Shown here piece by piece: positions 13,907 through 54,813 of a DNA stretch of 64,000 bases. How positions within the stretch are numbered: position 1 is the first letter of the stretch; each line of letters begins with the position of its first letter. Both the position numbers and the translations under genes were made by a program. The notes below the pieces were generated by a model that saw nothing but the letters and a program-made list of their open reading frames with translations, made no database searches and was not told the origin of the DNA. This DNA is from Candidatus Poribacteria bacterium (GTDB lineage: Bacteria > Poribacteria > WGA-4E > WGA-3G), in NCBI GenBank assembly GCA_965205025.1, contig CBDBFU010000032.1, positions 96,001 to 160,000 on the forward strand. The letters are read 5' to 3'.

Positions 13907-14024
13907 TGAGTCCCGTAGGGACGGAATGTCTATAGAAAAACTATGAAAACCTAAACTGAGTCCCGGGGAATGCCTAAATGGCATTCATACCGTTGATTTG
14001 GTAGGGACGGAATGTTTATAGAAA
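13907..14024 (-). repeat. Tandem pair of 31-bp REP-like units; the second is interrupted by the 34-bp mini-element
   Basis: 13907-13937 is the exact reverse complement of 48638-48668. The second unit is split by GGGGAATGCC...CGTTGATT (13965-13998). Confidence 0.85.
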
Positions 14025-19724: not shown

Positions 19725-19868
19725 TAATAAGTCTCCTATACATATAGGTTGTTGGGGATAATAAGTCAAAGGTTGTTTAGTTACACAGGAGGGGATGCAC
19801 AAATTGGTATGTGCTATCGTAAGAATTACTGGACTATATCTAAGAAATAGAGGAGGGGAATTATCAAC

Positions 19869-21713: not shown

Positions 21714-21813
21714 TACAGAATTCTCCTTTTATTGCGAATTATATGATGAATTTAAACTAACGGTTGTACTGTTACACAGAAGTGGATGCAGGATATACAT
21801 TCTGTTAATTTGG

Positions 21814-23718: not shown

Positions 23719-23863
23719 TATGTGTCTCCTTTGATTAGGGTTTTGTAATGTTCCTAACAATCATTCTATAGTTACTGGAATATGGATGCACATTTTTACA
23801 GTATGTTGAAAAGGCAATTATCGGTATGGATTGGGGTTATGAGTTAAGAATACTTGAAGATTG

Positions 23864-25732: not shown

Positions 25733-25765
25733 TTATTTATCCTCTAATTTGATTGTTGAAGTGTT

Positions 25766-25879
25766 TATACCAATCTAAAAATGTTTATCCCAGAAAAGTT
25801 GTTAAGTAGGTCTTGAAATACCGCACAAACTGGAAGTTTATGCTACATTAAAGAGGCTTTAATTATCAGAAATGGTATT
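25766..25879. mobile_element. MITE-like element with TATACCA...TGGTATTA ends and a REP hairpin core
   Basis: Short terminal IRs; core GCACAAACTGGAAGTTTATGCTAC matches the reverse-complement REP at 51326-51350; the right half recurs at about 48973-49039. Confidence 0.6.
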
Positions 25880-26039
25880 AGAATTAAAGATATTACAGTT
25901 AGACGAAAGTTGATACATTAATGTGATTAATGGTGAATGCTTATTCCTATAACGGGAAGCGGAGTTCCTCTACCAAGAGGCTTGAATGGTTTGGTTAAGG
26001 TATGAAAGGGTGTATATCTAAGTGAAATTGTAGAATTGG

Positions 26040-27923
26040 CTAATCAGTTGAGTCAGATGCTAATTCCCATAACAATACAGTTCCATCGAAACTACCGGAC
26101 GCAAGAGTTTTACTATCCGGACTGAATACCAGACTATCTATACTACTTGTATGTCCATTCAGAGTAGTAATATGTAGTCCTGTCTTTGCATCCCACAAAC
26201 GGATAGTACTGTCCCAACACCCACTTGCAAGTATTCTACCATCAGGACTAAAGGCGATAGTATGCACATCATCTGCATGTCCAGATAAGGTTTGTATAGC
26301 ATCACCTGTTTCTATATCCCATAAAATGATTGTGTCATCCCAACTACTGCTGGTAAGTTTACTACCATCTGGCGTGAAGGTTATACTACTCACCCTATTC
26401 ATGTGATTAGTTAGTGTATGTATTGTCTCACCTGTATTCACATCCCATAGACGTATTGTGTTATCCCAACTTCCACTTGCTAATATATCTCCATCTGGAC
26501 TGAAGGCAAGACTCACGATATGTTTTGTATGACCTTCAAGTGATGTAAGTTGATGTCCTGTATGTGGATTCCAAAGAATTATGGATGGTTCGTCACTGCC
26601 AGCAGCCAGTATGATACCATCTGGACTAAGTGCTATACTGCTGACTCCATCAGTATGTCCTGAGAACGTTCGAATTAAATTACCTGTCTGGATATCCCAT
26701 AACCGTATTGTTTCATCAGAATAACTACAACTAACGAGTGTCTTACCATCTGGACTAAATACTACTCCTGAAACCCTACCTGTGTGTCCTGAGAGTTCAT
26801 TAAGTAGGTTTCCTGTTTGCACATCCCACAAACTGACTGTCACACTCCCACTACCACCAGTTGCGATGATGTTCCCGTCTATACTGAATGCAACAGCTCG
26901 GACTCTATTGGTATATCCTGTGAGTTCCTGAATCTGTTCTAATGTCTTTACATCTAATACCTGAAGTGTATCACCTCGTCCGCCAGTTACATAGGTTTTT
27001 CCATCTGAACCAAAATCTATACTAATTAGGTTATCTGTATTATCACTAAATGCTGGTTGGGTTTCACCTGTCATGGCATCTTTTAAAGTAAATGAATTAT
27101 CCCATAACCCTACACTTATAATCTTCTTAATATCTGGATTGTATTGGACACTTACAATCTCTTCTGGTCTATACCACCCTGTTAGTGTTTGTAGGGATGC
27201 TCCTGTGTCTACATCCCACATACGGACTGTTCTATCAGAACTATTAGTAATTAGAAATTTATCGTCTTGACTGAATGCAACACCCCTTATTCGTTTCTCA
27301 TGTCCTTTGAGCGTGTGAAGTATGTTTCTTGTCGTTATATCCCATAGATATATTACATATTCTCGATTTGTTATAGCGAGTGTTGTACCATCTGTACTGA
27401 ATACTACTGTTCCAAATCGATCCGTATATCCTTCGATAGTATCCTGTAACGTCCCAGTCTGTACATCCCATAACCGTACAGTTGTATCGTGGCTACCACT
27501 TACCACCATTTTCCCATCAGGACTGAAAGCCACACTATTGACACTCATTGTGTGTCCTGTCATCGATCTGAGTTCTGTACCTGTTCGTACATCCCACAAA
27601 AGAACAATGTTATCTGTACCACCACTTGCTAAAGTTAATCCGTCTGGACTGAATGCCACACAGAATACATAAGCGTTTTGCTCCTTAAGTAAGTAAAGTT
27701 CTTTACCTGTCAGAGCATCGTGAATCCAAACCCCAGTAGAACTTGCTACAGCAATTAGTTTTCCATCTGGAGAGGATATGACCCGCGATGCAATGCCTTT
27801 ACCGAGTCGTACTTTGGCACCATCGGGTAATCCCCATTTTGGGTAGTCTTGGGCAGAAACTTTTGAGGTTATAATTTGAATTGAAAATAGAAAGGTGAGA
27901 ATCAATAACGGTATTCGTGACAT
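26040..27923 (-). CDS. Secreted WD40-repeat protein (array member 5)
   Basis: Signal peptide, DYPKWGLPDGAKVRLGKG cap, WD40 repeats. Confidence 0.9.
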   Translation of the reverse strand: MSRIPLLILTFLFSIQIITSKVSAQDYPKWGLPDGAKVRLGKGIASRVISSPDGKLIAVASSTGVWIHDALTGKELYLLKEQNAYVFCVAFSPDGLTLASGGTDNIVLLWDVRTGTELRSMTGHTMSVNSVAFSPDGKMVVSGSHDTTVRLWDVQTGTLQDTIEGYTDRFGTVVFSTDGTTLAITNREYVIYLWDITTRNILHTLKGHEKRIRGVAFSQDDKFLITNSSDRTVRMWDVDTGASLQTLTGWYRPEEIVSVQYNPDIKKIISVGLWDNSFTLKDAMTGETQPAFSDNTDNLISIDFGSDGKTYVTGGRGDTLQVLDVKTLEQIQELTGYTNRVRAVAFSIDGNIIATGGSGSVTVSLWDVQTGNLLNELSGHTGRVSGVVFSPDGKTLVSCSYSDETIRLWDIQTGNLIRTFSGHTDGVSSIALSPDGIILAAGSDEPSIILWNPHTGHQLTSLEGHTKHIVSLAFSPDGDILASGSWDNTIRLWDVNTGETIHTLTNHMNRVSSITFTPDGSKLTSSSWDDTIILWDIETGDAIQTLSGHADDVHTIAFSPDGRILASGCWDSTIRLWDAKTGLHITTLNGHTSSIDSLVFSPDSKTLASGSFDGTVLLWELASDSTD

Positions 27924-33206: not shown

Positions 33207-33392
33207 CGCCCCGCGAATCAAGGAATCAACGGTATGAATGCTATTTAGCATTCCCCGGGTATGAATGACATTATGAAGATTAATTTATTAATTCGGTAAT
33301 ATACGGGCGGGTTAACCCCGCCCCTACGATAAGTTTATGGACTGGATTACCGAAATATTTACTTAATACTCATTAGTCATTCCCCGGGACTC
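33207..33392 (+). mobile_element. Nested repeat: REP half + two 34-bp mini-elements + ATGAAGATTAA-TIR MITE (33273-33373) with core GGGCGGGTTAACCCCGCCCCTAC
   Basis: Concentric inverted repeats GAATGAC/GTCATTC, ATGAAGATTAA/TTAATACTCAT and TTCGGTAAT/ATTACCGAA. Confidence 0.8.
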
Positions 33393-34535: not shown

Positions 34536-37500
34536 TTACTTTAGTTTCATCATTTTGAGGATATGGGTTTGATCATCTTCGTCATCAAGACTTTTTACAA
34601 TCATCTTTCCATAGTATACACCGTTTGCTACCTCGTTTCCGTCGTCATCTTTACCATCCCATTTTAGTTGTATAAAGCCTGCGGAGGCTTCAGATTGTAG
34701 TTCTCTGATAAGTCGTCCAGTGAGTGTATATATTTTTACTATGAGTGATTCTGCAGGACGCGTCAATTCACATGTCACTGTAGTATCCGAATTAAATGGG
34801 TTCGGATAATTTAGGGGTTCAACTAATTGTAATTTTCCGTGTACTTGGAAAGCGATTTCACTCTCACCTGTATTTCCATCAAGGTCACTTGCTATAAGTC
34901 TTAGTTGATATTCACGTGGTTCAAGTTCAGGGGAATTATAGGTCAATATCAGTTGGCTTGAACCTGGATGCTGTGTAAGTTTATATTCTGTTTCTGGGAT
35001 TGGCTGAAACTCCCCAAGTTTTCCTAATTCAAGTTGAATGGGTCGGGTGATGTAATCAATCCCTCGCGGATCAGTAAGTGTTGCTTGGACGAGTGGGGAC
35101 GCATCCACGGGATCCCCGGAAACAAAATGCCCTTGATTGCCAACGGTCAACTGTATGTTAGGAGGAACTGTATCCTCACTTTGTAGACAAGTAATTGTAC
35201 CTAAGTATGATGTGGTTGATTGAATAGTTCCAACCGGAGAGGTATTGAACAGGAATCGATCTCCTGGTGTAAACGGGGTTGTTCCGTGTGTTATCAGTAG
35301 GTTCATTCCATAGTCCTTATACTCATAAGGTTTACCCACTGTGCCGTATACTGGTACCCCGTTGTTTTGTAATATTCCTGTGTTTTTTCCTTCGATCTGA
35401 TACTGGTTTTCTGTAACAAAGAGGATAAGCCAAGAATCCTGTGGTATCTTTGTATTTGTGGATAAATCCAGATATTGAATTGTTCCATTTCCGGCGTTAC
35501 GTGAAGTAAAAGAAGAAGCGAATAACTGTGAGACTTCTTCACCAGGTGCTTCAAGTTTTGCGATACGAAAGCGCATCATATCACCGAATTGAAATGGAAT
35601 CTCCCCCTCTTGTATTTCTAATAAGAAATTAGGTATATCTTCAATTGTTACCCCAAATACGCTGGTAAAGGATGTAATAGGTATTCCTCTTGCGATTTCT
35701 TTTAATTGGGGTTTGCCTACCAGATTCTCATTGGAAGTTTGATCAGTTAAGAAGAGAACTCTACAAGTATGCGTCGAGTCAAATAGGAGTATCCATGTCC
35801 CCGTATCAACACCGTCGGATGGTATAATGACATCATTGAGGGCAGCATCGGTATTATTTTTTGCTCTGATACCAGTTGCGCGTATAGCGGTATATATACT
35901 ACCATTCGTATGTTTTTTGACTTTAGACTCGAGTCGTGTCCAGTTTGCTATTTCATCAAGCCAAAGATAAGCACCAAGGGTTTGTGTTCTTGCTTGGATA
36001 GCAGTATTAATAGTTTCCTCAATATCGGACATTTCGTGTGTTACATCAACATCACTCCCAAACAGTTCACGAATAATTTCGTGCTGAAGTGCAGTAAAAT
36101 CGAAATCAAGTTCTATGGAAACAGGAGTTTGTAGTTTAAATGTGTTTCTTGTTTCTTTGAATTCAGAGTTTTTTATTTGGAGTGTGTATCCGAGCATAGA
36201 AGGTTCATTTGGGAATGTCACTGGTATAAGTGTTCCGGCTTGTAGATGACTTTTCTCTTTATTGCTAACAGATGAGAAGACCGGTTCAGATTTTCTGGCA
36301 ATCTCTCGTGCATTTCCCGTCCCACCAATAGCATAATCTTCGTCACTAAATGTTGTATCTGGTATTATTGATGAGATATTGAGGACAGTAGTTTTGTTTT
36401 GAATAACACCTGCTGGAAGGTTGATTCTTAATCCCCCATCAATACTTGCGACTCGTGCGGGACCTCCTCCAATAATGTTGCTTGAGACAGCAAGCTGTCT
36501 GTATCCGATATTATCATTCTCATTATTTTCCTTTACTTTCCCGTTTTCATCTGCTTCGTTAAAAACAGGATCAACATAGACGAAGACGTCGTGTGTACCT
36601 GTTCTCAATGATATGGGAATAATAACAGTAGCAATTGGGTTGATATTTAGCGGGTTGGGTATGTAGGCATTGGATCGATTGTTTAGTGGATTTCGTACCA
36701 CCCAATTCTTCGGTGTAATTTGTGTTTTACCGAGTATATGGGCGTCTTCATCAACGATGCCGTTATTATCAATATCTGGATTACCACTGAAAAATACGAC
36801 CTCTATATCCACATCGGATAATCCTAATACAGAAAGTAAATCATTTTCTGAATCAATTTTATCAGAGGAGTTTGCTGTGCCTACTAATTCAATATCAGCA
36901 GATAATACATATTCTTGCTCTCCATCTTCAGGATTCCCCACCTCATAATTGATCTGCGTTATGTTTTCCTCACGACTTGCAGCAACAGAAAGATTTGGAA
37001 AGGTATATGGATAGAAGCGGAGGATTTCAGATCTGATAGATTGTCCATCTGTATCTGTCACTTGGATATCATAACGTAATGCGGAACCATCAGTAGGAAC
37101 AGGTAATGCCTGAGGAATTTTCCACCATCTTGCGGTTGCTATATTAGGTTCATTAGTTTCAGGGCCTGATTGTGTAGGAATTAGTGATATTATTTCCCAA
37201 TTAGCAGTATTTGGATTACGCCATTCTAATTTAACAGAATCAACAGCTTTTTCATCGTCAGACACGCGAACAAATAGGTCAATCACATCCTCACCAGATG
37301 TTTTTGTAGTGAGTATTGGTTTTATATCAAGTATTTTTGGTATTTTGACAGTGAAACCGTCCCCACCGACAGCGATTTCAGTATTGTTTTCTGCATAGTA
37401 TTCAACGTGTGCATCACCAGCGGCAATGTTATTCGGTACATCTATTTCCACTGCAGGATAGCTTCCGTTTTTTACAGATATTGTTTTTGTTTTTATAACA

Positions 37501-40500
37501 TCTCCGGAGTAGAACTCTTTAGGGGCTCCAGTCTTATCTACACCGACTGATTGTTGTCCTGGGAAGACAACTTTGACAGTCAATTCTCCATTAAAGTTTG
37601 TATTTCGCGTGAATTTCTTCTGTTTTACAATAGGATCATAGCTTGCAGTCTGTATATATCCGTGTTCGATTTTTACAGTATCCCCAACTTTAACCGTCTT
37701 TGTCTGAATTGCGGGTAAGATTTCATAATCCGCCATAGCAATGTGCATAGCAGGATCACCGAATAGTGTATATTCCAGCATAATATCAAGTTGTCCAGTG
37801 CCTTGGGTTAGCAGATATTCAAGTTTGGAGTCAAAGCTTAGGGGTCCCAGTTGTCTAATATTACGTTTGAATAGCATATCAAATATGATCTGGTTTAGAT
37901 CTTCATTTCCACTGCCGTAAGTTAATCGAGTAGCACTGAGCATCCCTATGATTCCGCCTCTTTCTTTCCTTAGGAGTTTTTCAGCCAAACTCGGTTCACC
38001 CGGTTCATCAAAATATCCGTTATAACAACTCAAGACCAACATAAACGGCAGATGGTCTGTTTCTTTAACGTCATCAACATAAGCATTTCCGAAGATGGCT
38101 TCGTGTGCCCAGACAATATTTCCACCGTGTCCGGCGTATTGTGCGATAGCTGCTCCTTCCCCCAAAGCCTTAATAATCCTATCTCTTGCGACATGTCGAG
38201 GTAGAGTACTGGGAAATTGTTCAGGATTCGCCTCAACTTCATCTATTACATCTTCAAGATAAATCTCAATTGTTTCATATCCGAGGCGAGTATGGTTTTT
38301 TGCAATTTCGTTTAGACTCTTTTTAAAGATGTGATCACCGGGGTTATTCACCTCATCATCGGCAACAGATATAATGCGTCTTCTCCATGTACCATTTGGT
38401 CGTTTCGATTCGTAATTAATGATTTTATCAACAACAGCATCAGCTTCAGTCTGAGTTTCAACGGCGAGTCTCCCGATATATAAATCGACAAACTCATCAT
38501 GTCCTGAGACTGTAGCATACCAATGGTCAGTTGAAGTTCTACCATACGAATCTGTAGTGATGTAATGTGTAGGTATATATCCTGTGAGTTCAGGTGGTTC
38601 TGAATATATATCTTTATCTATACCTCGGAAATCGAAAGTGCCATCTCCTAAGATAACCATATATAAGAGTGCTGGAGGAGTCCAATTATGATAGGCATAG
38701 GTAAGGAAATTCTTTATCCAGATAGGATGGACTTTCCCGTCTCCAAATGTATTGTAAACATCGTTTATATCAACAACTTTTGTTCTATGTCCGCCTCCTC
38801 GTTGTGTGGATCGCCAGTTTGCTAACCTATCTGCTTGTTCTCGATATGTTGCATGGGTCAAGATAAGGTAGTCGACACTGTTCAGAGTGTTTCGTAGGTC
38901 GTTGGGTTGTATTGTTTCAATTTTAGCAGGTTTCCGAAGGGCTGAATTTGAAACAGCGATAAACTCAGTTGTTCTTGTATCTGGTATCTGAAAAATTGCG
39001 GAATATGTACTATTGGGAACACTTCTGAGATCTCCAGAATTTAATGCCCTTAGACGATCCTGCATTTCATGATTGACATTCTGCTGTAATATATTTACGC
39101 CTTGCAGCTTTGCAGTAAGAGTATTTCCGTCAGTTTCAAAAACATTAATTTTCGGATCAAGAAATGCATCAATCCGAAATTGGTGTATTCTCCCTTTCTT
39201 TTCTTCCTCACCCACTGTTTTAATGGGAGTACCAAATCGGAGTTCATCATTAACGGCTAAGAATAGTCGTGTATAATCCACCCAAAAGCGATTTAAGTAT
39301 ATATGATATGGATATCTCTTTGTGTCTTCTTCAAAAGTGCTATCGACTCGTGTTAGAGAAAGGATATTATTTTCGCCTTGCGAGGTATCTTTAAGGTTAT
39401 TCCAAACGCGAAGATTTTTTGAGAGAGTTACTTGCGATTGCAAATCCCATTTTGCGAGATCAATTTTAACACCGTTTACAGAAGCCAATATTTCATGGAA
39501 TACAGGTGTTCCTCCTTGTAATACGACGTGTATTTGTGGAGCATCGAAGCTTTTTGCTATATCGTGGAGTTGGAATTCATGTCTGAGTTCTCCTATATCA
39601 CTTGCATTTTTGATACCGTCCCAATACCAAAAGTCTAATGCGTCAAACCATTTATGTTTATCCCCATCTGAAACGACATCTGGATCAACGAATTCAAGGT
39701 TATTTGTGAGGTGATCCTCCTCAAAAATGACTCTTGACCGAAAAGTTGGGACTTGAACGGCGGTTGCATCGCTTGGACTTGCTTCAATTTGTGGCACACG
39801 TGATGGTAGTTGTCTATCGGATGATATCGTTAGCCAGTATACATTCCACAATGTATATGCATTTTTGGGATAGGGATTATCGGGATCTGTTGTGCCATGG
39901 GCGAGGAAGAAAATAGCATCGTTTGCATCAAAACTTCGATCTCCCGCGCCGCTAATATAGATAGGTATTTCTTGATCTGCATGTGAAAGTTGTATTTTCT
40001 GTGGATCAATACCGATGAGATTAATATCCCAATCGGTATGGAGTGATGCTGCTGAGACACTGTATATACCGGTCCTATCAATATACAATTTATAGCGTGT
40101 TTGATTTGATTTGTCATTTAATCCTGGTGCAGCGGGAGCAGATGGTACGTTTCCATTCTGAATATATGAAGGACGTTTTGTCTGAAAACCTGTGTTAAAG
40201 ATCTTTTTATAGTCTGAATAGTTGTGGATATGATGTGTTAGTGAATGCTTGTTGGAATTTAGACGTTCCTGTGAATTTGATAAAATAGAATTTAGTCTTG
40301 CTTCATTTCCAAGTTTAGATAGTTGTGATTGAAAAGGAATAGAGACTGTGAGACTGGTGTAAGACTGAAGTATACGTGTTTGTATATTGTATTGTACTGG
40401 ATGTAGTGCTAATGTAATGACGCGTTGAGAACGTATGTATCCATCCATTTCTATACGTGCCAAGACTGAAGGATAGAGATGAGAATGAGTAGATACATTT

Positions 40501-40961
40501 TCTTTATCAACTGGGAGTTTCACACCGTTGCGAGTTTGCAGAAAACCTGCATGAACTGATATGTCAGTATTGTTTAGTTTTACATCGGGAGGTATTGCTA
40601 AAAGCAGCCGTGTTGCAGGTAATTTTGGATAACCTGGATCTTGTATCCAATCACAATCTGAATAATGAACTGTATCATATACGATGTTTTCTTGCGGATT
40701 ACCATTGTTTACATCATGGGAAACTCTACTGACATGGAGTTGGGGTAATTTAAAAGTTACTGTTATACCGTCTTGGGTTGTGACATGGGAGACATCCGCA
40801 TATATGTCAGTATTAAAGGTGAATAAAACTCCCGCGAATGTGAGAAAATACAATAAAATTGCCCAGATGTGGGTTTTGGAGGTAATTACATTTTTAAAGG
40901 AAAATGATTTGATTTTTTTGTGATATATGAAAATATGATTTTGATGATTAATCTTGAGCAT
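34536..40961 (-). CDS. Peptidase C25 (gingipain/PorU-like) protein with propeptide and C-terminal FlgD-Ig/T9SS-like sorting domain
   Basis: PG.PKLP propeptide, GIYSV, DYLILTH, LGDGTFD, SxD.WY, IGRL, catalytic YAGHGG and LSCYNG, YTLFGDPA; C-terminal NYPNPFN...IYT..GRLI...WDGKD..G..VANGVY...KMMKLK. Confidence 0.88.
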   Translation of the reverse strand: MLKINHQNHIFIYHKKIKSFSFKNVITSKTHIWAILLYFLTFAGVLFTFNTDIYADVSHVTTQDGITVTFKLPQLHVSRVSHDVNNGNPQENIVYDTVHYSDCDWIQDPGYPKLPATRLLLAIPPDVKLNNTDISVHAGFLQTRNGVKLPVDKENVSTHSHLYPSVLARIEMDGYIRSQRVITLALHPVQYNIQTRILQSYTSLTVSIPFQSQLSKLGNEARLNSILSNSQERLNSNKHSLTHHIHNYSDYKKIFNTGFQTKRPSYIQNGNVPSAPAAPGLNDKSNQTRYKLYIDRTGIYSVSAASLHTDWDINLIGIDPQKIQLSHADQEIPIYISGAGDRSFDANDAIFFLAHGTTDPDNPYPKNAYTLWNVYWLTISSDRQLPSRVPQIEASPSDATAVQVPTFRSRVIFEEDHLTNNLEFVDPDVVSDGDKHKWFDALDFWYWDGIKNASDIGELRHEFQLHDIAKSFDAPQIHVVLQGGTPVFHEILASVNGVKIDLAKWDLQSQVTLSKNLRVWNNLKDTSQGENNILSLTRVDSTFEEDTKRYPYHIYLNRFWVDYTRLFLAVNDELRFGTPIKTVGEEEKKGRIHQFRIDAFLDPKINVFETDGNTLTAKLQGVNILQQNVNHEMQDRLRALNSGDLRSVPNSTYSAIFQIPDTRTTEFIAVSNSALRKPAKIETIQPNDLRNTLNSVDYLILTHATYREQADRLANWRSTQRGGGHRTKVVDINDVYNTFGDGKVHPIWIKNFLTYAYHNWTPPALLYMVILGDGTFDFRGIDKDIYSEPPELTGYIPTHYITTDSYGRTSTDHWYATVSGHDEFVDLYIGRLAVETQTEADAVVDKIINYESKRPNGTWRRRIISVADDEVNNPGDHIFKKSLNEIAKNHTRLGYETIEIYLEDVIDEVEANPEQFPSTLPRHVARDRIIKALGEGAAIAQYAGHGGNIVWAHEAIFGNAYVDDVKETDHLPFMLVLSCYNGYFDEPGEPSLAEKLLRKERGGIIGMLSATRLTYGSGNEDLNQIIFDMLFKRNIRQLGPLSFDSKLEYLLTQGTGQLDIMLEYTLFGDPAMHIAMADYEILPAIQTKTVKVGDTVKIEHGYIQTASYDPIVKQKKFTRNTNFNGELTVKVVFPGQQSVGVDKTGAPKEFYSGDVIKTKTISVKNGSYPAVEIDVPNNIAAGDAHVEYYAENNTEIAVGGDGFTVKIPKILDIKPILTTKTSGEDVIDLFVRVSDDEKAVDSVKLEWRNPNTANWEIISLIPTQSGPETNEPNIATARWWKIPQALPVPTDGSALRYDIQVTDTDGQSIRSEILRFYPYTFPNLSVAASREENITQINYEVGNPEDGEQEYVLSADIELVGTANSSDKIDSENDLLSVLGLSDVDIEVVFFSGNPDIDNNGIVDEDAHILGKTQITPKNWVVRNPLNNRSNAYIPNPLNINPIATVIIPISLRTGTHDVFVYVDPVFNEADENGKVKENNENDNIGYRQLAVSSNIIGGGPARVASIDGGLRINLPAGVIQNKTTVLNISSIIPDTTFSDEDYAIGGTGNAREIARKSEPVFSSVSNKEKSHLQAGTLIPVTFPNEPSMLGYTLQIKNSEFKETRNTFKLQTPVSIELDFDFTALQHEIIRELFGSDVDVTHEMSDIEETINTAIQARTQTLGAYLWLDEIANWTRLESKVKKHTNGSIYTAIRATGIRAKNNTDAALNDVIIPSDGVDTGTWILLFDSTHTCRVLFLTDQTSNENLVGKPQLKEIARGIPITSFTSVFGVTIEDIPNFLLEIQEGEIPFQFGDMMRFRIAKLEAPGEEVSQLFASSFTSRNAGNGTIQYLDLSTNTKIPQDSWLILFVTENQYQIEGKNTGILQNNGVPVYGTVGKPYEYKDYGMNLLITHGTTPFTPGDRFLFNTSPVGTIQSTTSYLGTITCLQSEDTVPPNIQLTVGNQGHFVSGDPVDASPLVQATLTDPRGIDYITRPIQLELGKLGEFQPIPETEYKLTQHPGSSQLILTYNSPELEPREYQLRLIASDLDGNTGESEIAFQVHGKLQLVEPLNYPNPFNSDTTVTCELTRPAESLIVKIYTLTGRLIRELQSEASAGFIQLKWDGKDDDGNEVANGVYYGKMIVKSLDDEDDQTHILKMMKLK

Positions 40962-40974
40962 TATCTTGCCTTAA

Positions 40975-40995
40975 TTAGTTGTTAGTTGTTAGTTG
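40975..40995 (+). repeat. Heptamer tandem repeat (TTAGTTG)x3 just upstream of the C25 gene
   Basis: Read directly; degenerate heptamer runs also occur at about 34490-34516 and 31602-31645. Confidence 0.6.
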
Positions 40996-41163
40996 ATAAT
41001 TGTTTCCGTTTAACAGTGGCATTTTCAGAGTAAAGGTTTTTGGCACTCAACTTCATCCTGCAATTGTATCTGGATACCAATATTTTTCCCAAGTATTGTT
41101 CATTTGTATACATCTCAACTCCATTATTGCATTGTGACCTTCATCTGTCAATCTCATAATTAT

Positions 41164-41310
41164 ATTAGATGTATGGCTATTGTGAATGGAAAAAGTGTTA
41201 ATTTTTGTCGTATTGAAATGGTTGCCCTTTCACGGAAACCTTCACGGAGCAATTTTACGAGCCCTTATTCTATAAGGGTTTAAATTTTAATTAGACCGAT
41301 TTTCCGTGAA
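41164..41310 (+). repeat. About 105-bp dispersed repeat; second, truncated copy at 48831-48936
   Basis: ATTAGATGTATGG...TTCACGGAAAC.TTCACGGAGCAATTTTACGA.CCCTTATTC is shared by both sites. Confidence 0.75.
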
Positions 41311-41421
41311 TCACATTCGTTAATTTAATTATAACTTAAGTACTTATATGTTTTTCATACGAAATGTATTGGGACATAGCACTCCGCTGGAGTGCCAGAT
41401 TGTTCCGATATTGTTTTCTAT

Positions 41422-41573
41422 AACGTGAGTTTGATAAATCATATTTTTAAATTCGAATCAACGGTATGAATGCTATTTAGCATTCCCCGTGGTTAGGAAA
41501 CCGCACCTACCGGGCGTATAGGAGTAATATTTTAGGAAAATGAAACTTATTTGCCTATTATCAAACTCACGTT
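41422..41573. mobile_element. 152-bp MITE with 16-bp TIR AACGTGAGTTTGATAA and 6-bp target duplication TTCTAT
   Basis: TIRs at 41422-37 and 41558-73; TTCTAT at 41416-21 and 41574-79; contains the 34-bp element and a REP. Related ends occur at about 305-318, 33450-33465, 45803-45837 and 51391-51405. Confidence 0.85.
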
Positions 41574-42347
41574 TTCTATGGACATAGTACTCCGCTGGAG
41601 TACGGTATTTTTGATATAGAAAACTCCAAAAAATAGACTTATCATTAGATACTCAGTTTCCCTGAATTAGAATTTTCCAATTTAGGCTTTGTATATAATT
41701 GGCATATTTGGTCTTGAGAATACTCTTCAATAACTGATATTTCAGATTGTTAAAAAGGTCTAAAAACAGAGATTTAATCCTAATATACAGACAAAAAATA
41801 AGGTGTAAAAATAGACATTTAATCCTAAATCTCAGAGAGTAGATAGTGTTGTTGTTGCATGAGTCTATTCCTCGAAAAAATGAAAAAAGTTACACTTTTT
41901 GTCACACGGTGTGACATTGAAATTGGTGTAAATTACCCCTATAACCCCTGTCATAGACTGACTTTACTCCACTTTGAATTGACTTTATAAGAATTTCTAA
42001 AATGTGTGGTTTTGTGTTCTTTTTATCCTTCCTGATTTTGAGATTCCCAACGGTTAAAAAGGTATGCTTTTTTGACGTATATGAAACTTTGTATTTAGGA
42101 TCGTATTTATAAATTGTCATTTGTTTTTAGTTTGTGTTGTAACTTCTAATTTTATTTTCATTTTGACAGATATTCTTAATATGTGCTTCTATTTTTGTGA
42201 TATATGTATGTTAGTTGTTAGAGATGGATGTTTTCTTCATTAATTAGATCGGGGATCGGAATCCTCTCCTACACATAATACTATTTCTATAAATTATTGT
42301 CTCATTAGGTGGTTATTATGGCAGTCATTTTTCAGGTCACAAACTGA

Positions 42348-42491
42348 ATGAAGATTAAAATAATAATTCGGTAATGTGTTAGAAATTCGAATCAACGGTA
42401 TGAATGCTATTTAGCATTCCCCGTGGTTAGGAAACCGAACCTACCAAGTTTGGGAAAATGGGAATTACCGAATTTAAAACTTAATCCTCAT
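42348..42491. mobile_element. ATGAAGATTAA-TIR MITE with REP core interrupted by the 34-bp element
   Basis: About 29-bp imperfect TIR; nearly identical to 43717-43829 except for the insert. Confidence 0.8.
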
Positions 42492-42671
42492 AAAGTTTGT
42501 GGTACAAAAAAGAGACATTTTCAATTAGAAATGGTATAACATTCAGTGTGTATATAATAATCGACAAACAATCGAAAACTAAAAACCTTGGGATTATTGC
42601 ATTTGTGATTTATACTTTAGTTGTAAGATGTTTTGGTTTTCTTCAAAAAAAATATATTTTTCTAAATTATT

Positions 42672-43649: not shown

Positions 43650-43716
43650 GTTTTCCTCAAATTGTATTCAGAAATTTTAACATATTTTAATTTAAGAGGT
43701 CAATTTTGAATGACAT

Positions 43717-43829
43717 ATGAAGATTAAAATAATAATTCGGTAATGTTTTAGAAATTCGGTTCGGTTAGGAAACCGAACCTACCGGGTTTATGAAAATGGG
43801 AATTACCGAATTTAAAACTTAATCCTCAT
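43717..43829. mobile_element. ATGAAGATTAA-TIR MITE with intact REP core GTTCGGTTAGGAAACCGAACCTAC
   Basis: TIRs flanked by GAATGAC/GTCATTC; followed by two REP-like units at about 43869-43949. Confidence 0.8.
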
Positions 43830-44136
43830 TAGTCATTCCCCGGGGTTTAGGATATTGTTGATAACGACTTCTGTAGACATTTCGTCCCTACGGGATTCAA
43901 GATAAGTGTTGGATAGTTTTCCTATAAACATTCCGTCCCTACAGGACTCCATTTAGTGTCTGATTACTTGTTATTACAATGGTAGTTGGTTTGAATAAAT
44001 ATCCTATCAAGAAAACTGTGTAAGTCTTGACTATATTTATGAAATCTTTCATTTCTTTAACAATTACAACTTTCAAGGAACAAAAGCGTCTAATCAGGTG
44101 TATAAAATAAAATACATTATTCTGGAGGAGAATCGT

Positions 44137-44619
44137 ATGTCAGAAACTGTTGAAAAGCGAACGTTACAGCGTCATTTCAATCCTGTGAAGGCGAAATTGG
44201 CTTATATGGAAGAATGTTTTGATCAATTGCGAAACGGTCTTCCATCAAGTAAAGATGATTATATAGTCTCTGATCGTCTAACCCATTCTTATGTAAAAAG
44301 TTGCTTCCTGATGATTGTACAGAGAGCAGTTGACATAAACAATGCTATTATAGAATTTAGTGGTAATACACCTCCATACCAAAAGCAACAAAGTTTTCGT
44401 TCGATTCAGGAAAGCGGTGCAATTGATCTTGATACATTAAATTTCTTTGAACACGCCTTAGACTGTTACCAAAAAATCGCTAATCCTTATGAAGGATTAC
44501 CTGCCTCTGATCTTTATGATATATCTTCTTTACTTTTGCACCATGGTGAAGCGTATGCTCGGCAGATAAATGACTTTTTTGATGATACGAGTACAAAAAC
44601 AGTTGCTGAAGATAGTTAG
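44137..44619 (+). CDS. DUF86/HepT-like HEPN protein with degenerate catalytic motif
   Basis: GGAGGAG RBS. K...MEE...L, VQRAVDINN.II...G..P.....F..I.E.G.I aligns by eye to DUF86; the R-x4-H position reads YQKIAN. Confidence 0.6.
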   Translation: MSETVEKRTLQRHFNPVKAKLAYMEECFDQLRNGLPSSKDDYIVSDRLTHSYVKSCFLMIVQRAVDINNAIIEFSGNTPPYQKQQSFRSIQESGAIDLDTLNFFEHALDCYQKIANPYEGLPASDLYDISSLLLHHGEAYARQINDFFDDTSTKTVAEDS

Positions 44620-45890: not shown

Positions 45891-46799
45891 TATTAGCGTC
45901 AATTTTAGAAAAAGGATGTCTGATTTTTCAATAATAATTATTGTTAAGTGAAAACACCTCCTATATAATGTATAAAAATATTACCTTTTCACTTTATACA
46001 AGAGGTGTTTCCAATGAATACATTATCACAGGTTCCTGAAAGAATGCAACAGATTCTAACGACCATTGCCGATGAAGCAACCCTTGAAACAGGGTTTTGC
46101 AAAAGAAATCGAAAACTCACAGGGAGTCAATTTGCTCAGATACTTACTTTTAGTTGGTTAGAAAATCCTGATGCTACCTATACTCAACTTACACATACTG
46201 CTGCTTCGCTCGGTACTCCTATCTCACGGCAAGCCATTGAACAACGATTTACAGCTGAAGCTGCACAAACCCTCAAAGCAACCCTTGATGCGGCTGCGTC
46301 CGAAATGATTTCCGCGGATCCACAAGTTCTTCCACTCCTTGAACAGTTCAACGGTATCTATATACAAGACAGTTCTTGGATAATACTCCCTGATACGCTT
46401 CACGATATTTGGGAAGGCGCCGGTAAAGATGAAAGTAAGATTAGTAGCTCAGAGACTCTCCGAAGAAGACACCGAAAAACGACGACGAGATATCAACTAT
46501 CGTGCCAAACGAAAGCATACACAAGCATCACAGGCACGGCTCCAACGGCATTGGGTGATGTTGGTCGTAGGATGGCGATGTTTACGACATAGTCTATCGA
46601 AAACAGTAGATCTTATTACATCCTACACACGCACAATCACAACAAACTTTCGCAAGTCTAAGAAGCATCTTAGGCAGACATTTGATGAAATAAAACAAGT
46701 ATTCGAAACAGGATGCTATATTGAGAGACGAGCTAATAGAAAAACAACATTGGAATATCTTGAAAATGCTATAAAAAAAACACTAAATTGACGCCTATG
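45891..46799 (+). mobile_element. IS4-family (IS231-like) element, non-autonomous double-deletion derivative (909 bp)
   Basis: Ends match the copy at 46989-48443; two internal deletions totalling 546 bp remove the LADLGY and RWQIE regions. Confidence 0.9.
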
Positions 46800-46988
46800 A
46801 ATCAACGGTATGAATGCTATTTAGCATTCCCCGTGGTTAGGAAACCGCACCTACCAGCTCTGGGTCCAAATTACCTATTTTATTTTTTTAACTTCATTTA
46901 TCATTCCCCGGGTATGAATGACATATGAAGATTAATTTTTAAATTCGGTAATTTTGGAGAAAGATCCAGTGCGGTTAGGAAACCGCAC

Positions 46989-48443
46989 TATAGGCGTCAA
47001 TTTTAGAAAAAGGATGTCTGATTTTTCAATAATAATTATTGTTAAGTGAAAACACCTCCTATATAATGTATAAAAATATTACCTTTTACTTTATACAAGA
47101 GGTGTTTCCAATGAATACATTATCACAGGTTCCTGAAAAAATGCAACAGATTCTAACAACCATTGCTGATGAAGCAGCCCTTGAAACAGGATTTTGCAAA
47201 AGAAATCGAAAACTTGCGGGGAGTCATTTTGCTCAGACACTTATTTATAGTTGGTTAGAAAATCCTGATGCCACCTATACTCAACTTACACATACTGCTG
47301 CTTCTCTCGGTACTCCAATCTCACGACAAGCGATTGAACAACGATTTACTGCTGAAGCTGCACAAACCCTCAAAGCAATCCTTGACGCGGCTGCGTCCGA
47401 AGTGATTTCTGCGGATCCACAAGTTCTCCCACTCCTTGAACAGTTCAACGGTATCTATATACAAGATAGTTCTTGGATAACACTCCCTGATACGCTTCAC
47501 GATATTTGGGAAGGTGCCAGTAAAAAGGATTATCCGAACAAATCCGAACTGAAACTCCATCTACGCTTCGATGTTGCTACAGGGACATTCGAACACTTTC
47601 AACTCACCAACGGCATCACCGCTGATAGCACTGTAGAAAAACAGATTGACCGGCTCCCCCAAGGGAGTTTACGCCTTGCGGATCTCGGTTATTTTTCGCT
47701 ACAAACCCTTCAAGAACTTACGGACGAAGGGGTCTTTTGGATTTCACGGTATAAAGTTAGGTGTTCGGTTTTTGACAATACAGGAAAGCCTCTTTGTTTA
47801 CATAAATGGCTCAAGTTTCAGACCGAAAACATTATCGAAACAGATATTTTCATAGGTTCAAAAAAGCGGATGAAAGTAAGATTAGTAGCTCAGAGACTCT
47901 CCGAAGAAGAAACCGAAAAACGACGACGAGATATCAACTATCGTGCTAAACGAAAGCATACACAAGCATCACAGGCACGACTCCAACTCGCAGGTTGGAA
48001 TATCTACATTACAAATATTGGAACGGATCAACTCACCGCTGAACAGATATGTGTCATTGCGCGGATTCGATGGCAGATCGAGTTGATATTTAAGTGCTTT
48101 AAAAGCCTTGGAAAAGTAGACACATCACGAAGTAAAAAACCGTATCGTATTCTATGTGAAATATATGCTAAACTGATCGCTGCAATCATTCGGCATTGGG
48201 TGATGTTGGTCATAGGATGGCGATGTTTACGGCATAGTTTATCGAAAACAGTAGAGCTTATTACGTCCTACACACGCACAATCACAATAAGCTTTCGCAA
48301 GTCAAAGAGACATCTTAGAGAGACATTTGATGAGATAAAACAAGTATTCGAAAACGGGTGCTACATTGAAAGAAGAGCTAATAGAAAAACAACATTGGAA
48401 TATCTTGAAAATGCTACAAAAAACCGCTAAATTGACGCCTATG
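46989..48443 (+). mobile_element. IS4-family (IS231-like) insertion sequence, 1455 bp
   Basis: TIRs TATAGGCGTCAATTTTAG and CTAAATTGACGCCTATG; flanked by the 20-bp direct repeat GTGCGGTTAGGAAACCGCAC. Confidence 0.92.
47111..48430 (+). CDS. IS4-family DDE transposase
   Basis: GFCKRNRKL N-terminus; IQDSS (D1), LADLGYF (D2), RWQIELIFK (E); GAGGTG RBS. Confidence 0.93.
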   Translation: MNTLSQVPEKMQQILTTIADEAALETGFCKRNRKLAGSHFAQTLIYSWLENPDATYTQLTHTAASLGTPISRQAIEQRFTAEAAQTLKAILDAAASEVISADPQVLPLLEQFNGIYIQDSSWITLPDTLHDIWEGASKKDYPNKSELKLHLRFDVATGTFEHFQLTNGITADSTVEKQIDRLPQGSLRLADLGYFSLQTLQELTDEGVFWISRYKVRCSVFDNTGKPLCLHKWLKFQTENIIETDIFIGSKKRMKVRLVAQRLSEEETEKRRRDINYRAKRKHTQASQARLQLAGWNIYITNIGTDQLTAEQICVIARIRWQIELIFKCFKSLGKVDTSRSKKPYRILCEIYAKLIAAIIRHWVMLVIGWRCLRHSLSKTVELITSYTRTITISFRKSKRHLRETFDEIKQVFENGCYIERRANRKTTLEYLENATKNR

Positions 48444-48554
48444 GTGCGGTTAGGAAACCGCACCTACCGGGTTTGGGAAAATTAGAATTACCGAAATATT
48501 TAGTTAATCCTCATTAGTCATTCACCGGGGCTTAGTGTTTTGTGTTTATTACGT

Positions 48555-48773
48555 TTTCTACACACCTTTCGCCCCGCGAATCAACGGTATGAATGCCTTA
48601 TGGCATTCCCCGGGCTTGGGATATTGGTGATAACCACTTCTATAGACATTCCGTCCCTACGGGACTCATTCAGTTAATTGATCCGTTTTCTATAGACATT
48701 CCGTCCCTACGGGACTCAATACCTACCAGGTCTGGCGGAATTAGAATTACCGAAATATTTTCTTAATCTTCAT
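48555..48773 (+). repeat. REP cluster: REP interrupted by the 34-bp element, two perfect 31-bp units (48638-68, 48688-718) and a MITE right end
   Basis: TTCTATAGACATTCCGTCCCTACGGGACTCA occurs twice with a 50-bp period. Confidence 0.85.
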
Positions 48774-52929: not shown

Positions 52930-54813
52930 ATGGCAAAAATAAAAATTCTATCATCAGATGTTGCGAATAAAATCGCTGCAGGAGAAGTTGTCGAACGTCC
53001 TTCCTCTGTTGTAAAAGAACTTATTGAAAATGCAATTGACGCTGAGAGTACAAGTATTAGAGTAGAAATCCGAGCTGGTGGAAAAGCACTGATCCGTGTT
53101 TCAGATAATGGTATCGGTATGGAACGTGAGGATGCTTTACTGGCAATAGAACGACATGCAACAAGTAAAGTGAGTCAAATTGAGGATCTTGAGAATATCC
53201 ATACATTTGGATTTCGGGGTGAAGCATTGGCAAGTATTGCGTCTGTTTCTGAATTTGAACTTCTTACACGCACTCCTGATGCAATTCAAGGGACCCAGAT
53301 AAATGTTGATGGTGGTGTATTTCGATCGGTTGAAGAGAGTGGTTGTTCACCAGGAACACATATTTCGATTAGCAATCTTTTCCATAATGTCCCCGCACGT
53401 CTTAAGTTTCTTAAGACAGATACCACAGAAATTAACCATATAACTAACCATGTAACATGGGCAGCATTAGCACATCCGACGATTCATTTTTCTTTGACAC
53501 ATAATACAAAGACGATCTTAGATGTACGTGCTTGCGATTCCTATTTGGAAAGAACAAGACTATTGTATGGTAAAGATTTTGCTGATAATGTAATTGAATT
53601 TCAAGAGGAATTATCCGAATTCAATGTATCAGGACTCTTAGGAAAACCTGATTTTACTAAGACAAATCGTGAATATCAACTCTTTTTCATGAATCAACGT
53701 CCGATACGGAGTCAGATGCTTGGAGCAGCATTAAGGGAAGGGGTAAGCGCGACAGTACAAAAAGATCGACATGCAGTCGCATTTCTTTTTATGACTCTTG
53801 AACCTGATAAAGTTGATGTGAATGTGCATCCTGCTAAAATAGAAGTACGGTTCAGAAACGAACGTACAATATTTAGTGGAATTGTTAAGGTTTTACGGAG
53901 TGTGATAAATAGAGAGAAATTCATACCTAAAATAGAAACTCCTATAGAAACATCTGAAGAGAAAACACCTGAAGAATTACATCCAGATCCAATACCAGTT
54001 TCTACAACTACCCAACCACAATCCAAAACAACGACTTCAACAGATCATAGAATTGAACCTATCAACACATCTGAACCGATAGAGGAACGTATTGAAACAG
54101 TTGAACCTAAATCTGTAGAAACAGAAGCACAACCTGAAGAAGAAACTAAACCTACAAGTAAGGTTTCAGGAACTACCGTTGTTCACCCACAACAATCAAT
54201 ACCAGATGGTGTAAAACTAAAACTACTTGATTTTGAAAATGTCGAACTGAAGACAAATCTATTTAAGACCTATATTGTCGCTGAAGGTGAAGATAGAATC
54301 TTCTTTATTGATCAACACGTTGCTGCGGAACGTGTTCTATATGAACGATTTGTCAATCAGTTAAAAACTGATGGCATCCCAGTACAAGGTCTTCTACTAC
54401 CCATTACTTTAGAAGTGACTCCTCAACAGATTGGTATACTAAAGGTTCATGGAGAGTTATTCAAAAAAATTGGGTTTGATTTAGAAGACTTTGGTGGAAA
54501 TACCATCCTTATCCGAGCTATCCCATCAACACTTCCTACCCGATCAGCAGGACAAACTGTCACAGATCTTCTTGATAAACTCCCAGAACAACCACATTCT
54601 GAAGTGGAAATTCCCAAAGCAATTGATGATGCGCTGATTACGTTAGCCTGTCAATCAGCAGTAAAGGCTGGTGATACCTTGGACACTAAAGAAATGATTA
54701 ACCTCATTCGGGAGTTATCATACGCCAAACTCCCTTTCAATTGTCCTCATTCCAGACCAATCATCATAGAAATGGGTCGTGATGAATTGGAACGTCGTTT
54801 TCATCGATCCTAA
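52930..54813 (+). CDS. mutL: DNA mismatch repair endonuclease MutL
   Basis: NKIAAGEVVERP, GFRGEAL, DVNVHPAK, IDQHVAAER..YE, ACQSAVK and CPHSRP motifs. Confidence 0.97.
   Translation: MAKIKILSSDVANKIAAGEVVERPSSVVKELIENAIDAESTSIRVEIRAGGKALIRVSDNGIGMEREDALLAIERHATSKVSQIEDLENIHTFGFRGEALASIASVSEFELLTRTPDAIQGTQINVDGGVFRSVEESGCSPGTHISISNLFHNVPARLKFLKTDTTEINHITNHVTWAALAHPTIHFSLTHNTKTILDVRACDSYLERTRLLYGKDFADNVIEFQEELSEFNVSGLLGKPDFTKTNREYQLFFMNQRPIRSQMLGAALREGVSATVQKDRHAVAFLFMTLEPDKVDVNVHPAKIEVRFRNERTIFSGIVKVLRSVINREKFIPKIETPIETSEEKTPEELHPDPIPVSTTTQPQSKTTTSTDHRIEPINTSEPIEERIETVEPKSVETEAQPEEETKPTSKVSGTTVVHPQQSIPDGVKLKLLDFENVELKTNLFKTYIVAEGEDRIFFIDQHVAAERVLYERFVNQLKTDGIPVQGLLLPITLEVTPQQIGILKVHGELFKKIGFDLEDFGGNTILIRAIPSTLPTRSAGQTVTDLLDKLPEQPHSEVEIPKAIDDALITLACQSAVKAGDTLDTKEMINLIRELSYAKLPFNCPHSRPIIIEMGRDELERRFHRS

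Follow-up and report, generated by a model that had tools for sequence, protein, structure and literature searches.

A self-nesting mini-insertion element of 35–36 nt in the hairpin repeats of Candidatus Poribacteria

Introduction

Can a sequence of some 35 nucleotides (nt) be a mobile element in its own right? The question is raised by a stretch of 64,000 nt from a Candidatus Poribacteria bacterium (assembly GCA_965205025.1, contig CBDBFU010000032.1, positions 96,001 to 160,000 of the forward strand), which we refer to as the window. At position 41455 of the window, and at five other places, a short leader followed by a hairpin stands inside another repeat, such as a hairpin of the repetitive extragenic palindrome (REP) type. 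An initial annotation, made from the letters of the window alone, had described this sequence as a 34-bp unit that enters REP hairpins, and had proposed an enzyme for its movement. Here we study the repeat in the window, in the source genome (5.66 Mb in 33 contigs, 38.5% G+C) and in related genomes.

We find that the repeat is a real, well-defined and self-nesting mini-insertion element, which adds a new family to a known, if obscure, kind. We consider it probable, at roughly 0.75, that it is a non-coding, non-autonomous mobile mini-element of 35–36 nt that inserts at hairpins. The evidence comes from the exact removal of its copies, from the junctions with its targets and from the manner in which copies are nested, and it is on these three grounds that the earlier description of an insertion-type element landing in REP hairpins and in itself is borne out.

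Copies in the window

A pattern search of the window with the 19-mer GAATCAACGGTATGAATGC yields five matches without mismatch on the forward strand (33223, 41455, 42389, 46799 and 48578) and one match with a single mismatch on the reverse strand (13981-13999). All six copies claimed by the initial annotation are present, against a chance expectation of 0.03 matches, and none of 100 shuffles reaches seven. The seventh match, at 3959, has three mismatches, lies inside an open reading frame (ORF) and has no hairpin behind it; we counted it as chance.

The unit is bipartite. It consists of a leader L, RAATCAA(C/G), followed by a 27-nt extended hairpin R of the form GGTAT-stem-loop-stem-CCCCG or, in full, GGTATGAA-x-loop-x'-TTC(C/A)CCG. 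That is, the unit measures 35–36 nt rather than the 34 bp first given.

Read in context, each of the six copies does interrupt another repeat, as had been stated. The copies at 41455, 42389 and 46799 occupy the 5' foot of a (G)TGCGGT-TAG-GAAACCGCA hairpin, and not its loop. Both pairs of filled and empty sites that had been reported in the window are real. In the first, a miniature inverted-repeat transposable element (MITE) at 42348-42491 carries the element and its counterpart at 43717-43829 does not; the empty MITE is itself an insert in an element hairpin, which it separates at the loop into halves at 43706-43716 and 43830-43842. In the second, the filled form at 46785-46849, where the copy stands between an inverted repeat of an IS4-like insertion sequence (IS) at 46785-46798 and a TGCGGT-type hairpin at 46833-46849, corresponds to the empty IS end plus hairpin at 48429-48462. 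The reverse-strand copy at 13964 lies near an empty REP of the GTCCC-TAC-GGGAC family (13910-13922). The array at 33215 is nested, with an outer leader GAATCAAG (33215-33222), a complete inner copy (33223-33257) and the 5' half of an outer hairpin (33258-33271); a MITE beginning near 33272 interrupts the loop of this outer hairpin.

Exact removal and insertion sites

In the source genome, an 18-nt core of the repeat occurs 278 times when up to two changes are allowed. A structure-aware scan returns 337 hairpin units, part of them spurious, and these parse into 260 arrays of one or more units, 230 of which have at least one leader. In the following we use these 230 arrays.

The first question is whether the ends of the repeat are the ends of an insert. 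In the exact-excision test, we delete an array, join the 60 nt of flank on either side and look for a paralogue of the joined sequence elsewhere in the genome, at an identity of at least 85%. With exact removal, 158 of the 230 arrays yield a joint that is spanned by a paralogue, if at least 20 nt are required on each side, and 104 of 230 do so if at least 50 nt are required. As controls, we moved the cut by 12 nt or removed the neighbouring block instead; these give 34/230 and 35/229 at 20 nt, and just 6 and 8 at 50 nt. The boundaries of the element are true indel boundaries. A similar picture is obtained from the junctions alone: 63 of the 159 junction classes, covering 129 of the 230 arrays, have an empty form with the same 10+10-nt flanks in the genome. 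For example, the MITE junction of the copy at 42389 is found in 19 arrays genome-wide and has 11 empty counterparts.

We found seven named target classes. The targets comprise three REP-type families, one CCCCC..GGGGG hairpin, and the element's own loop and its own junction between leader and hairpin. Writing [E] for the element, the loop of the GTCCC REP, GTCCCTA-CGGG-ACTC, becomes CC[E]GG; the loop of the GCCCC hairpin, GCCCC-GCTGGG-GCTT, becomes GC[E]GG; and that of the TGCGGT hairpin, GCGGT-TA-GGAAACC, becomes GT[E]GG. The same TGCGGT hairpin also receives the element at its 5' foot (AGTGCG to [E]TG) and at its 3' foot (CACC to CC[E]CC), and a further junction turns CCCCTA-AATCCC-CCTTATC into AA[E]CC. 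A leader-like sequence, GACTCAAG, which forms the tail of a REP, likewise receives inserts. One or two target letters are replaced at the loops and four to six at the 5' foot, and there is no target duplication at any junction. The absence of a duplication had been claimed correctly, then, together with the absence of terminal inverted repeats.

Fold and stem

The leader, of 7–8 nt, is unpaired, and the extended hairpin is built of CGG, an internal loop, a stem of 6–7 bp, a loop of 4–6 nt and CCG. Folded as single-stranded DNA, the unit forms a 7-bp stem, closed by an extra CGG/CCG helix that starts from the last leader base. The fold energies are -5.8 and -7.2 kcal/mol (z = -4.1 and -3.8), with -5.8 kcal/mol and z = -4.07 for the copy at 41455. 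In the composite at 13964, the stem of the REP still closes around the element hairpin.

The stem had been said to covary, and it does. Stem pair 4, which is not used in detection, is Watson-Crick in 246 of 258 units, with C-G in 155 and T-A in 91. At stem pairs 1 and 3 we count 20 and 26 double changes versus 7 and 9 single mismatches, although pairs 1 to 3 are biased by the detection, in which the hairpin scanner tolerated at most one mismatch over six stem pairs, and pair 4 alone is unbiased. The compensatory changes, together with fold z-scores of -3.8 to -4.1, show that the hairpin is under selection.

Nesting

The composition of the arrays, given as the numbers of leaders and of hairpins behind them, is (1,1) in 158 cases, (2,2) in 22 and (3,3) in one. 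Where leaders outnumber hairpins, in most cases a MITE interrupts the outer hairpin or only half of that hairpin is left. In 29 of the 31 arrays with at least two leaders and at least two hairpins, the inner and the outer hairpin are different variants. This difference is predicted if a new unit inserts at the leader-hairpin junction of a resident one, and is not predicted by tandem duplication. Of 8 arrays that end in GGACTC, 7 have as their outermost hairpin the variant that characterises this target.

Two related observations may be recorded here. The source genome holds a minor sister family of 6 copies (for example on contigs C23, C13 and C20), which shares the leader AAATCAAC and has a fully paired stem GCCGAATGC/GCATTCGGC; its insertion point is the 3' end of ordinary element copies, behind TTCCCC. 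In a relative, G030, seven units follow one another head to tail (G030:C1:1044374-1044600) with a period of 35, joined as ...TTCCCCC/AAATCAAC...; another part of that genome, a 70-kb region at 4.35-4.42 Mb, contains roughly 35 copies.

Genomic position and distribution

The arrays are intergenic in 229 of 230 cases, while crude ORFs cover about 80% of the source genome. Their orientation relative to the host repeats is invariant (40:0, 55:0 and 81:0). Adjacent arrays at most 150 bp apart are co-oriented in 40 cases and opposite in one, so that inverted doublets are absent. Relative to the flanking genes the element is skewed: in 95 arrays it has an antisense gene on either side, and in 39 a sense gene on either side. 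The orientation of the host REPs may be all that lies behind this skew.

A 17-mer core of the element is found in 98 of the 112 genomes of the family, at 1–424 copies per genome, and its reversed control in none. By genus, it is present in all 39 other species of the source genus, in 58 of 65 genomes of a second genus and in none of 7 from four further genera; in the remainder of the phylum, 1 of 64 genomes has a single match. An exact scan of 185,579 species genomes with a 25-mer spanning the nested junction gives, among the matches listed, Candidatus Poribacteria and one metagenome-assembled genome labelled 'uncultured bacterium'. These matches speak against a cyanobacterial origin, which G+C content and the style of the repeats would have suggested. 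The 35-mer has no match in the plasmid collection.

The host repeats are distributed otherwise. A 17-mer of the GTCCC REP (REP-A) occurs in just 4 of 40 genomes of the genus, and comparison with the wide spread of the core indicates that the element is older and more conserved than its host repeats. In G030 and in another relative, G079, the element occupies other host repeats; in the latter, the GGTAT...CCG frame is also shared by sister families that differ in the stem.

A model of insertion

Taken together, these results show where insertion takes place and suggest how it might proceed. New copies are written into the transitions between single and double strand of other DNA hairpins, in their loops and in their 5' or 3' feet. 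Insertion always occurs in one orientation relative to the host, with one or two (rarely up to six) target letters replaced and none duplicated. The process would read folded single-stranded DNA and would be carried out in trans; we regard a structure-reading, strand-specific, trans-acting process as likely. Copies would be added without being removed again, self-excision seemingly being absent, since empty and filled sites coexist and we see no excision footprints.

Which enzyme could move the element?

According to the initial annotation, the repeat would be a hyperparasite of REPs. A Y1 HUH enzyme, either a REP-associated tyrosine transposase (RAYT) or the TnpA of IS200/IS605, would move it in trans in the form of single-stranded DNA. 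By analogy with the products of such enzymes, the missing target duplication, the missing inverted ends, the conserved hairpin, the strict orientation and the hairpin targets would all fit. Candidate genes exist, too. The source genome has three RAYT-type genes of the Y1 class, each encoding 162 aa and each flanked by inverted GTCCC REPs, which identifies the GTCCC hairpins as true REPs. A second RAYT group in the relatives is flanked by REPs of its own, of the TGCGGT/GGTTCGGT type or the GGGAATCGGAGTTCCC type; because these also host the element, all three of its main hosts are genuine REP-type repeats. At a cut-off of E at most 0.001, a Y1_Tnp domain is found in 105 of the 112 genomes of the family. 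The other usual candidates are missing from the source genome: the IS110-type transposase (PF01548), also suggested initially, has no match there (the assembly is 95% complete; a positive control matched in 6 of 14 genomes), and neither TnpB nor reverse-transcriptase (RVT_1) domains were found. Y1 is consequently the sole remaining candidate among the usual ones.

Other observations count against the proposal. Of the 11 Y1 loci that we read (three in the source genome and eight in G028, G043 and G032), none is bracketed by the element hairpin as a cognate repeat. In the source genome the brackets are the GTCCC REPs; ten of the 11 loci have no element beside the gene, and at the remaining one (G032:C45) the upstream REP cluster contains nested copies. 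The TnpA loci of IS200/IS605 type in the relatives, as read in G028, have other end sequences. Presence of the element and presence of Y1 genes are decoupled, moreover. Three genomes in good assemblies contain no Y1_Tnp match and yet have about 100 copies each (G023, 104 copies; G030, complete in 1 contig, 116; G034, 4 contigs, 96), and the reverse is seen in G005, G007 and G073, which have 33, 13 and 7 Y1 matches, respectively, and no copy of the element. In a tally over the genus, the 21 genomes with the RAYT type of the source genome have a median of about 46 copies, and the 18 genomes that lack this type have a median of about 86. The 35-mer lacks the GTAG tag, and there is no conserved 4-nt target 5' of the insertions.

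We also looked for a bias between replichores in one complete single-contig genome, G014. Its 81 copies (42 forward and 39 reverse) are mixed along the chromosome without such a bias, and the best-arc statistic is equalled by 285 of 300 permutations. Like the absence of inverted doublets, this counts against the Y1 proposal. One consideration softens these results: one REP type, REP-C, persists in the source genome without its cognate RAYT group, so absence of an enzyme today weakens the inference against its action in the past. On balance we consider the Y1 proposal unsupported and doubtful as it stands.

The alternative is equally tentative. The element might represent a class of micro-transposons that target structure and need no known transposase family, with an unrecognised host enzyme, or a side reaction of replication or repair, possibly acting in its place. 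In the source genome, no multi-copy protein family preferentially adjoins the arrays, according to a test in which families were built by k-mer clustering of ORFs.

The three RAYT-type genes of the source genome lie within 35 kb of one another on contig C27, at 53023-53493 (-), 72619-73089 (+) and 86984-87454 (+), and are 97–100% identical. Each is preceded by tandem inverted GTCCC REPs with a period of about 50 nt, and at least two are followed by a fragment similar to a 297-aa multi-copy ORF of the same contig.

Insertion or mosaic?

A further possibility dispenses with dedicated insertion. The repeat could be a module of mosaics, spread between hairpins by gene conversion, unequal recombination or template switching. 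It is important to weigh this proposal, because several of our observations count against insertion, and some of them are what a mosaic would produce. The hairpin variant is strongly correlated with the target class: 9 of 10 copies in GTCCC loops share one variant, and 38 of 50 copies at the 5' foot share another. A small number of insertions, with later amplification of the composite, may therefore account for many of the copies. Some junctions are chimeric, for example a GCCCC left arm combined with a GGACTC right arm, which points to recombination between copies, and the junctions are not perfectly uniform, with 0–2 letters changed (4–6 at the 5' foot). Slippage could produce the seven-unit run in G030. 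To these points must be added the detection bias at stem pairs 1–3 noted above, and the fact that no enzyme was found for the element.

Nor did 39 relatives and two public runs show a locus-specific difference in presence or absence between strains. Whole repeat blocks are absent from the nearest genomes, whose identity is about 85%. At the ilvD side of the region, for instance, the relatives can be aligned in genes only; the closest of these comparisons, with G032, is 83–86% identical over two aligned stretches, and the entire 285-bp repeat block is missing there, an observation that bears on the block and not on the element alone. The two public runs contain the stretch (0.99 and 0.98 of its words), and their Logan contigs break at repeats. 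A joint of positions 48577 and 48612 in a public run, which skips 34 letters, has 20–22 letters on each side and could stem from any empty hairpin in the metagenome.

The mosaic proposal meets difficulties of its own, however. The identical 35-nt unit, with identical ends, stands in at least seven unrelated contexts and also inside itself; inner variants recur in more than one outer context; the element persists over two genera, whereas REP-A is confined to 4 of 40 genomes of the genus; and unrelated hosts offer no homology for conversion. The initial annotation had itself named a single ancestral composite as the source that would contradict insertion. Such a source cannot explain the family, since the same variants are found across several target classes and each class has several variants. 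What the correlation between variant and target does indicate, in combination with the 19 arrays in one MITE context, is that many copies are passengers of multiplying hosts. Part of the copy number, and much of it, is shown to result from passive copying inside multiplying MITEs or REPs. We regard a mosaic without dedicated insertion as unlikely.

Finally, the repeat could be a functional site held in place by selection rather than a selfish insertion, acting either as a structured RNA or as a DNA hairpin that binds protein. This seems highly improbable: the covarying stem of the repeat, its conservation across two genera and its skew towards antisense neighbours would agree with a function, but copy numbers range from 0 to 424 among related species, copies nest in themselves and pile up in tandem, MITEs sit inside the loop, and no Rfam family reaches threshold in the window.

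Relation to known elements

The insertion element we describe lacks the defining features of REPs and REP doublets forming hairpins (REPINs), of IS200/IS605 derivatives, of MITEs and of IS110-type elements. Like REPs and REPINs (Bertels and Rainey 2011, PMC3116915; Di Nocera et al. 2013, PMC3733652), it is a short, abundant intergenic hairpin with a structurally conserved stem, present in some 230 arrays, and it shares clusters with the true REPs of the source genome. Unlike them, it contains neither GTAG nor CGTC on either strand of the 35-mer (the host REPs have GTAG on the opposite strand), flanks no RAYT gene as a cognate repeat, forms no inverted doublets (40:1), is decoupled from Y1 genes and is a guest inside REPs.

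Similar to the miniature derivatives of IS200/IS605, which move as single-stranded DNA by 'peel and paste', the element lacks inverted ends, duplicates no target letters, relies on a hairpin and is strand-specific with respect to its target. Yet it has one hairpin where those have two subterminal ones, shows no replichore bias in G014, and has no fixed target of 4–5 nt, the letters on its 5' side varying (..CTACC, ..CCCGC, ..GCGGT, ..CTAAA, ..CCTAT, ..AATTC). The TnpA loci of G028 carry other ends, and the source genome has no TnpB domain. From MITEs derived from DDE transposons the element differs in lacking terminal inverted repeats and target-site duplication, and an IS110-type origin is at odds with the absence of a DEDD transposase (PF01548) from the source genome.

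The bacterial interspersed mosaic elements (BIMEs) of E. coli and the BOX elements of pneumococci are intergenic mosaics in which short modules vary in number and order. The present element forms intergenic arrays of short modules too, but here one module is an insert with defined ends, and the arrays are nested, with n leaders followed by n hairpins, instead of being strings of modules.

The closest parallel, likened by description only, appears to be the small dispersed repeats SDR4, SDR5 and SDR6 of the Nostocaceae. To our knowledge, mobile DNA below 50 nt is barely understood; we know of no described case other than the SDR elements, and of no mechanism for them since 2008. The SDR elements, of which Elhai et al. 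(2008) described eight families, measure 21–27 nt, form hairpins and nest in one another. Both systems are very short, non-coding, dispersed at high copy number and precisely inserted into other short repeats. They differ in phylum, the element occurring in Poribacteria and not in Nostocaceae among the matches listed in the 25-mer scan. They differ also in their hosts, which for the present element are REP hairpins with RAYT genes of their own, and in the fixed leader. In the literature on SDR elements, SDR5 inserts between the third and fourth letter of HIP1 (PMC4390886), HIP1 serves as an insertion site (PMC5861425), and SDR elements are 'some 20 bp long' and possibly mobile (PMC2884548). 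Given the last figure, calling our repeat one of the smallest possible mobile units was an overstatement. On such repeats in Poribacteria we found no paper.

If the micro-transposon interpretation is true, the element would be a convergent counterpart, or a distant relative, of the cyanobacterial SDR elements. The 35-nt leader-hairpin has been kept in two genera through the turnover of the REPs that host it. The family offers a second, independent system of mobile DNA below 50 nt, in another phylum, and one of unusually clean anatomy: fixed ends, targets in the loops and feet of hairpins including its own, strict orientation, and hundreds of filled and empty pairs. Since copy numbers range from 0 to 424 over more than 100 genomes, comparative searches for the enzyme are feasible. 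The hosts are uncultured sponge symbionts. The layering of REP clusters (REP, IS or MITE, mini-element) matters for typing or assembly based on repeats.

Features of the window

Table 1. Element copies, host repeats and empty counterparts in the window
Feature	Position	Strand	Basis or remark
Element copy, stem GAATGCC/GGCATTC, AAATCAAC, in loop of GTCCC-TAC-GGGAC REP	13964..13999	-	
Nested array inside GCCCC hairpin	33215..33271	+	read in context
Element copy, leader GAATCAAC and hairpin GGTATGAATGC-TATTTA-GCATTCCCCG	41455..41489	+	pattern search, context, fold
TGCGGT-type REP hairpin, host of the 41455 copy at its 5' foot	41489-41510		
Element copy at 5' foot of internal hairpin of a MITE (filled form)	42389..42423	+	MITE 42348-42491
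Empty copy of the 42348-42491 MITE, reading GAAATTC-GGTTCG-GTTAGGAAACC	43717..43829	+	
Element copy between decayed IS4-like end and TGCGGT-type hairpin (filled form)	46799..46833	+	
Element hairpin, 5' half GGTATGAATGACAT, loop interrupted by MITE	46911..46924	+	MITE inverted repeat ATGAAGATTAA at 46925
Intact IS4-like insertion sequence, outside the element	46990..48442	+	context only; inverted repeats ATAGGCGTCAATTT
Empty counterpart of the 46799 site, IS4-like end (48429-48442) directly followed by GGTGCGGTTAGGAAACCGCA	48429..48462	+	
Element hairpin, 3' half TAGTCATTCACCG, immediately behind MITE end	48515..48527	+	
Element copy, stem GAATGCC/GGCATTC, in loop of GCCCC-GCT-GGGGC hairpin	48578..48612	+	
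Two empty GTCCC-TAC-GGGAC REPs (48653-48665 and 48703-48715)	48653..48715	+	family flanking the RAYT genes of contig C27

The features of Table 1 are layered. In the window, the order of layers is REP, then mini-element, then MITE, then mini-element again. A MITE of about 113 bp with the ends ATGAAGATTAA...TTAATCCTCAT is found repeatedly in the loop of the mini-element hairpin (GCCAT/.../TAGGC); its sites in the window are 42348-42491, 43717-43829, 33272-, 46925-, 48763-48773 (-) and 48937-. The intact IS4-like element encodes a DDE_Tnp_1 transposase of 463 aa (47039-48430) and has TGCGGT-type hairpins on both sides (46971-46987 and 48446-48462). That is, it is bracketed by the same hairpin of about 17–20 nt, an arrangement resembling the duplication of a REP as an unusually long target site. 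A decayed IS4-like copy (46005-46798) ends at 46798.

The extent of such accumulation can be judged from one spacer. In a relative of about 92% identity (a contig from run X2), the genes for the C25 peptidase and an alcohol dehydrogenase are separated by about 235 bp; in the source genome the spacer measures about 1.8 kb (window 40839-42670), and it therefore consists almost wholly of accumulated repeats.

Among the other ORFs of the window are eukaryote-like repeat proteins (361-3774 and 17850-27923, reverse strand), one of which is an 1137-aa protein with leucine-rich repeats (LRR) and WD40 repeats. The WD40 proteins at 17850-19802 and 26040-27923 are the ends of a run of five ORFs of about 615–650 aa, of which the two end ORFs were scanned. 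The ORF of about 630 aa at 52930-54813 is MutL, and so falls outside the family of that run. One ORF cluster has 206 members across the source genome. The 2141-aa ORF at 34536-40961 (-) has a gingipain-type Peptidase_C25 domain with propeptide and a C-terminal FlgD Ig-like domain. The 173-aa ORF at 44098-44619 (+) matches a HepT-like ribonuclease weakly (25 bits, cut-off 23.5) and may be the toxin of a HepT/MNT pair.

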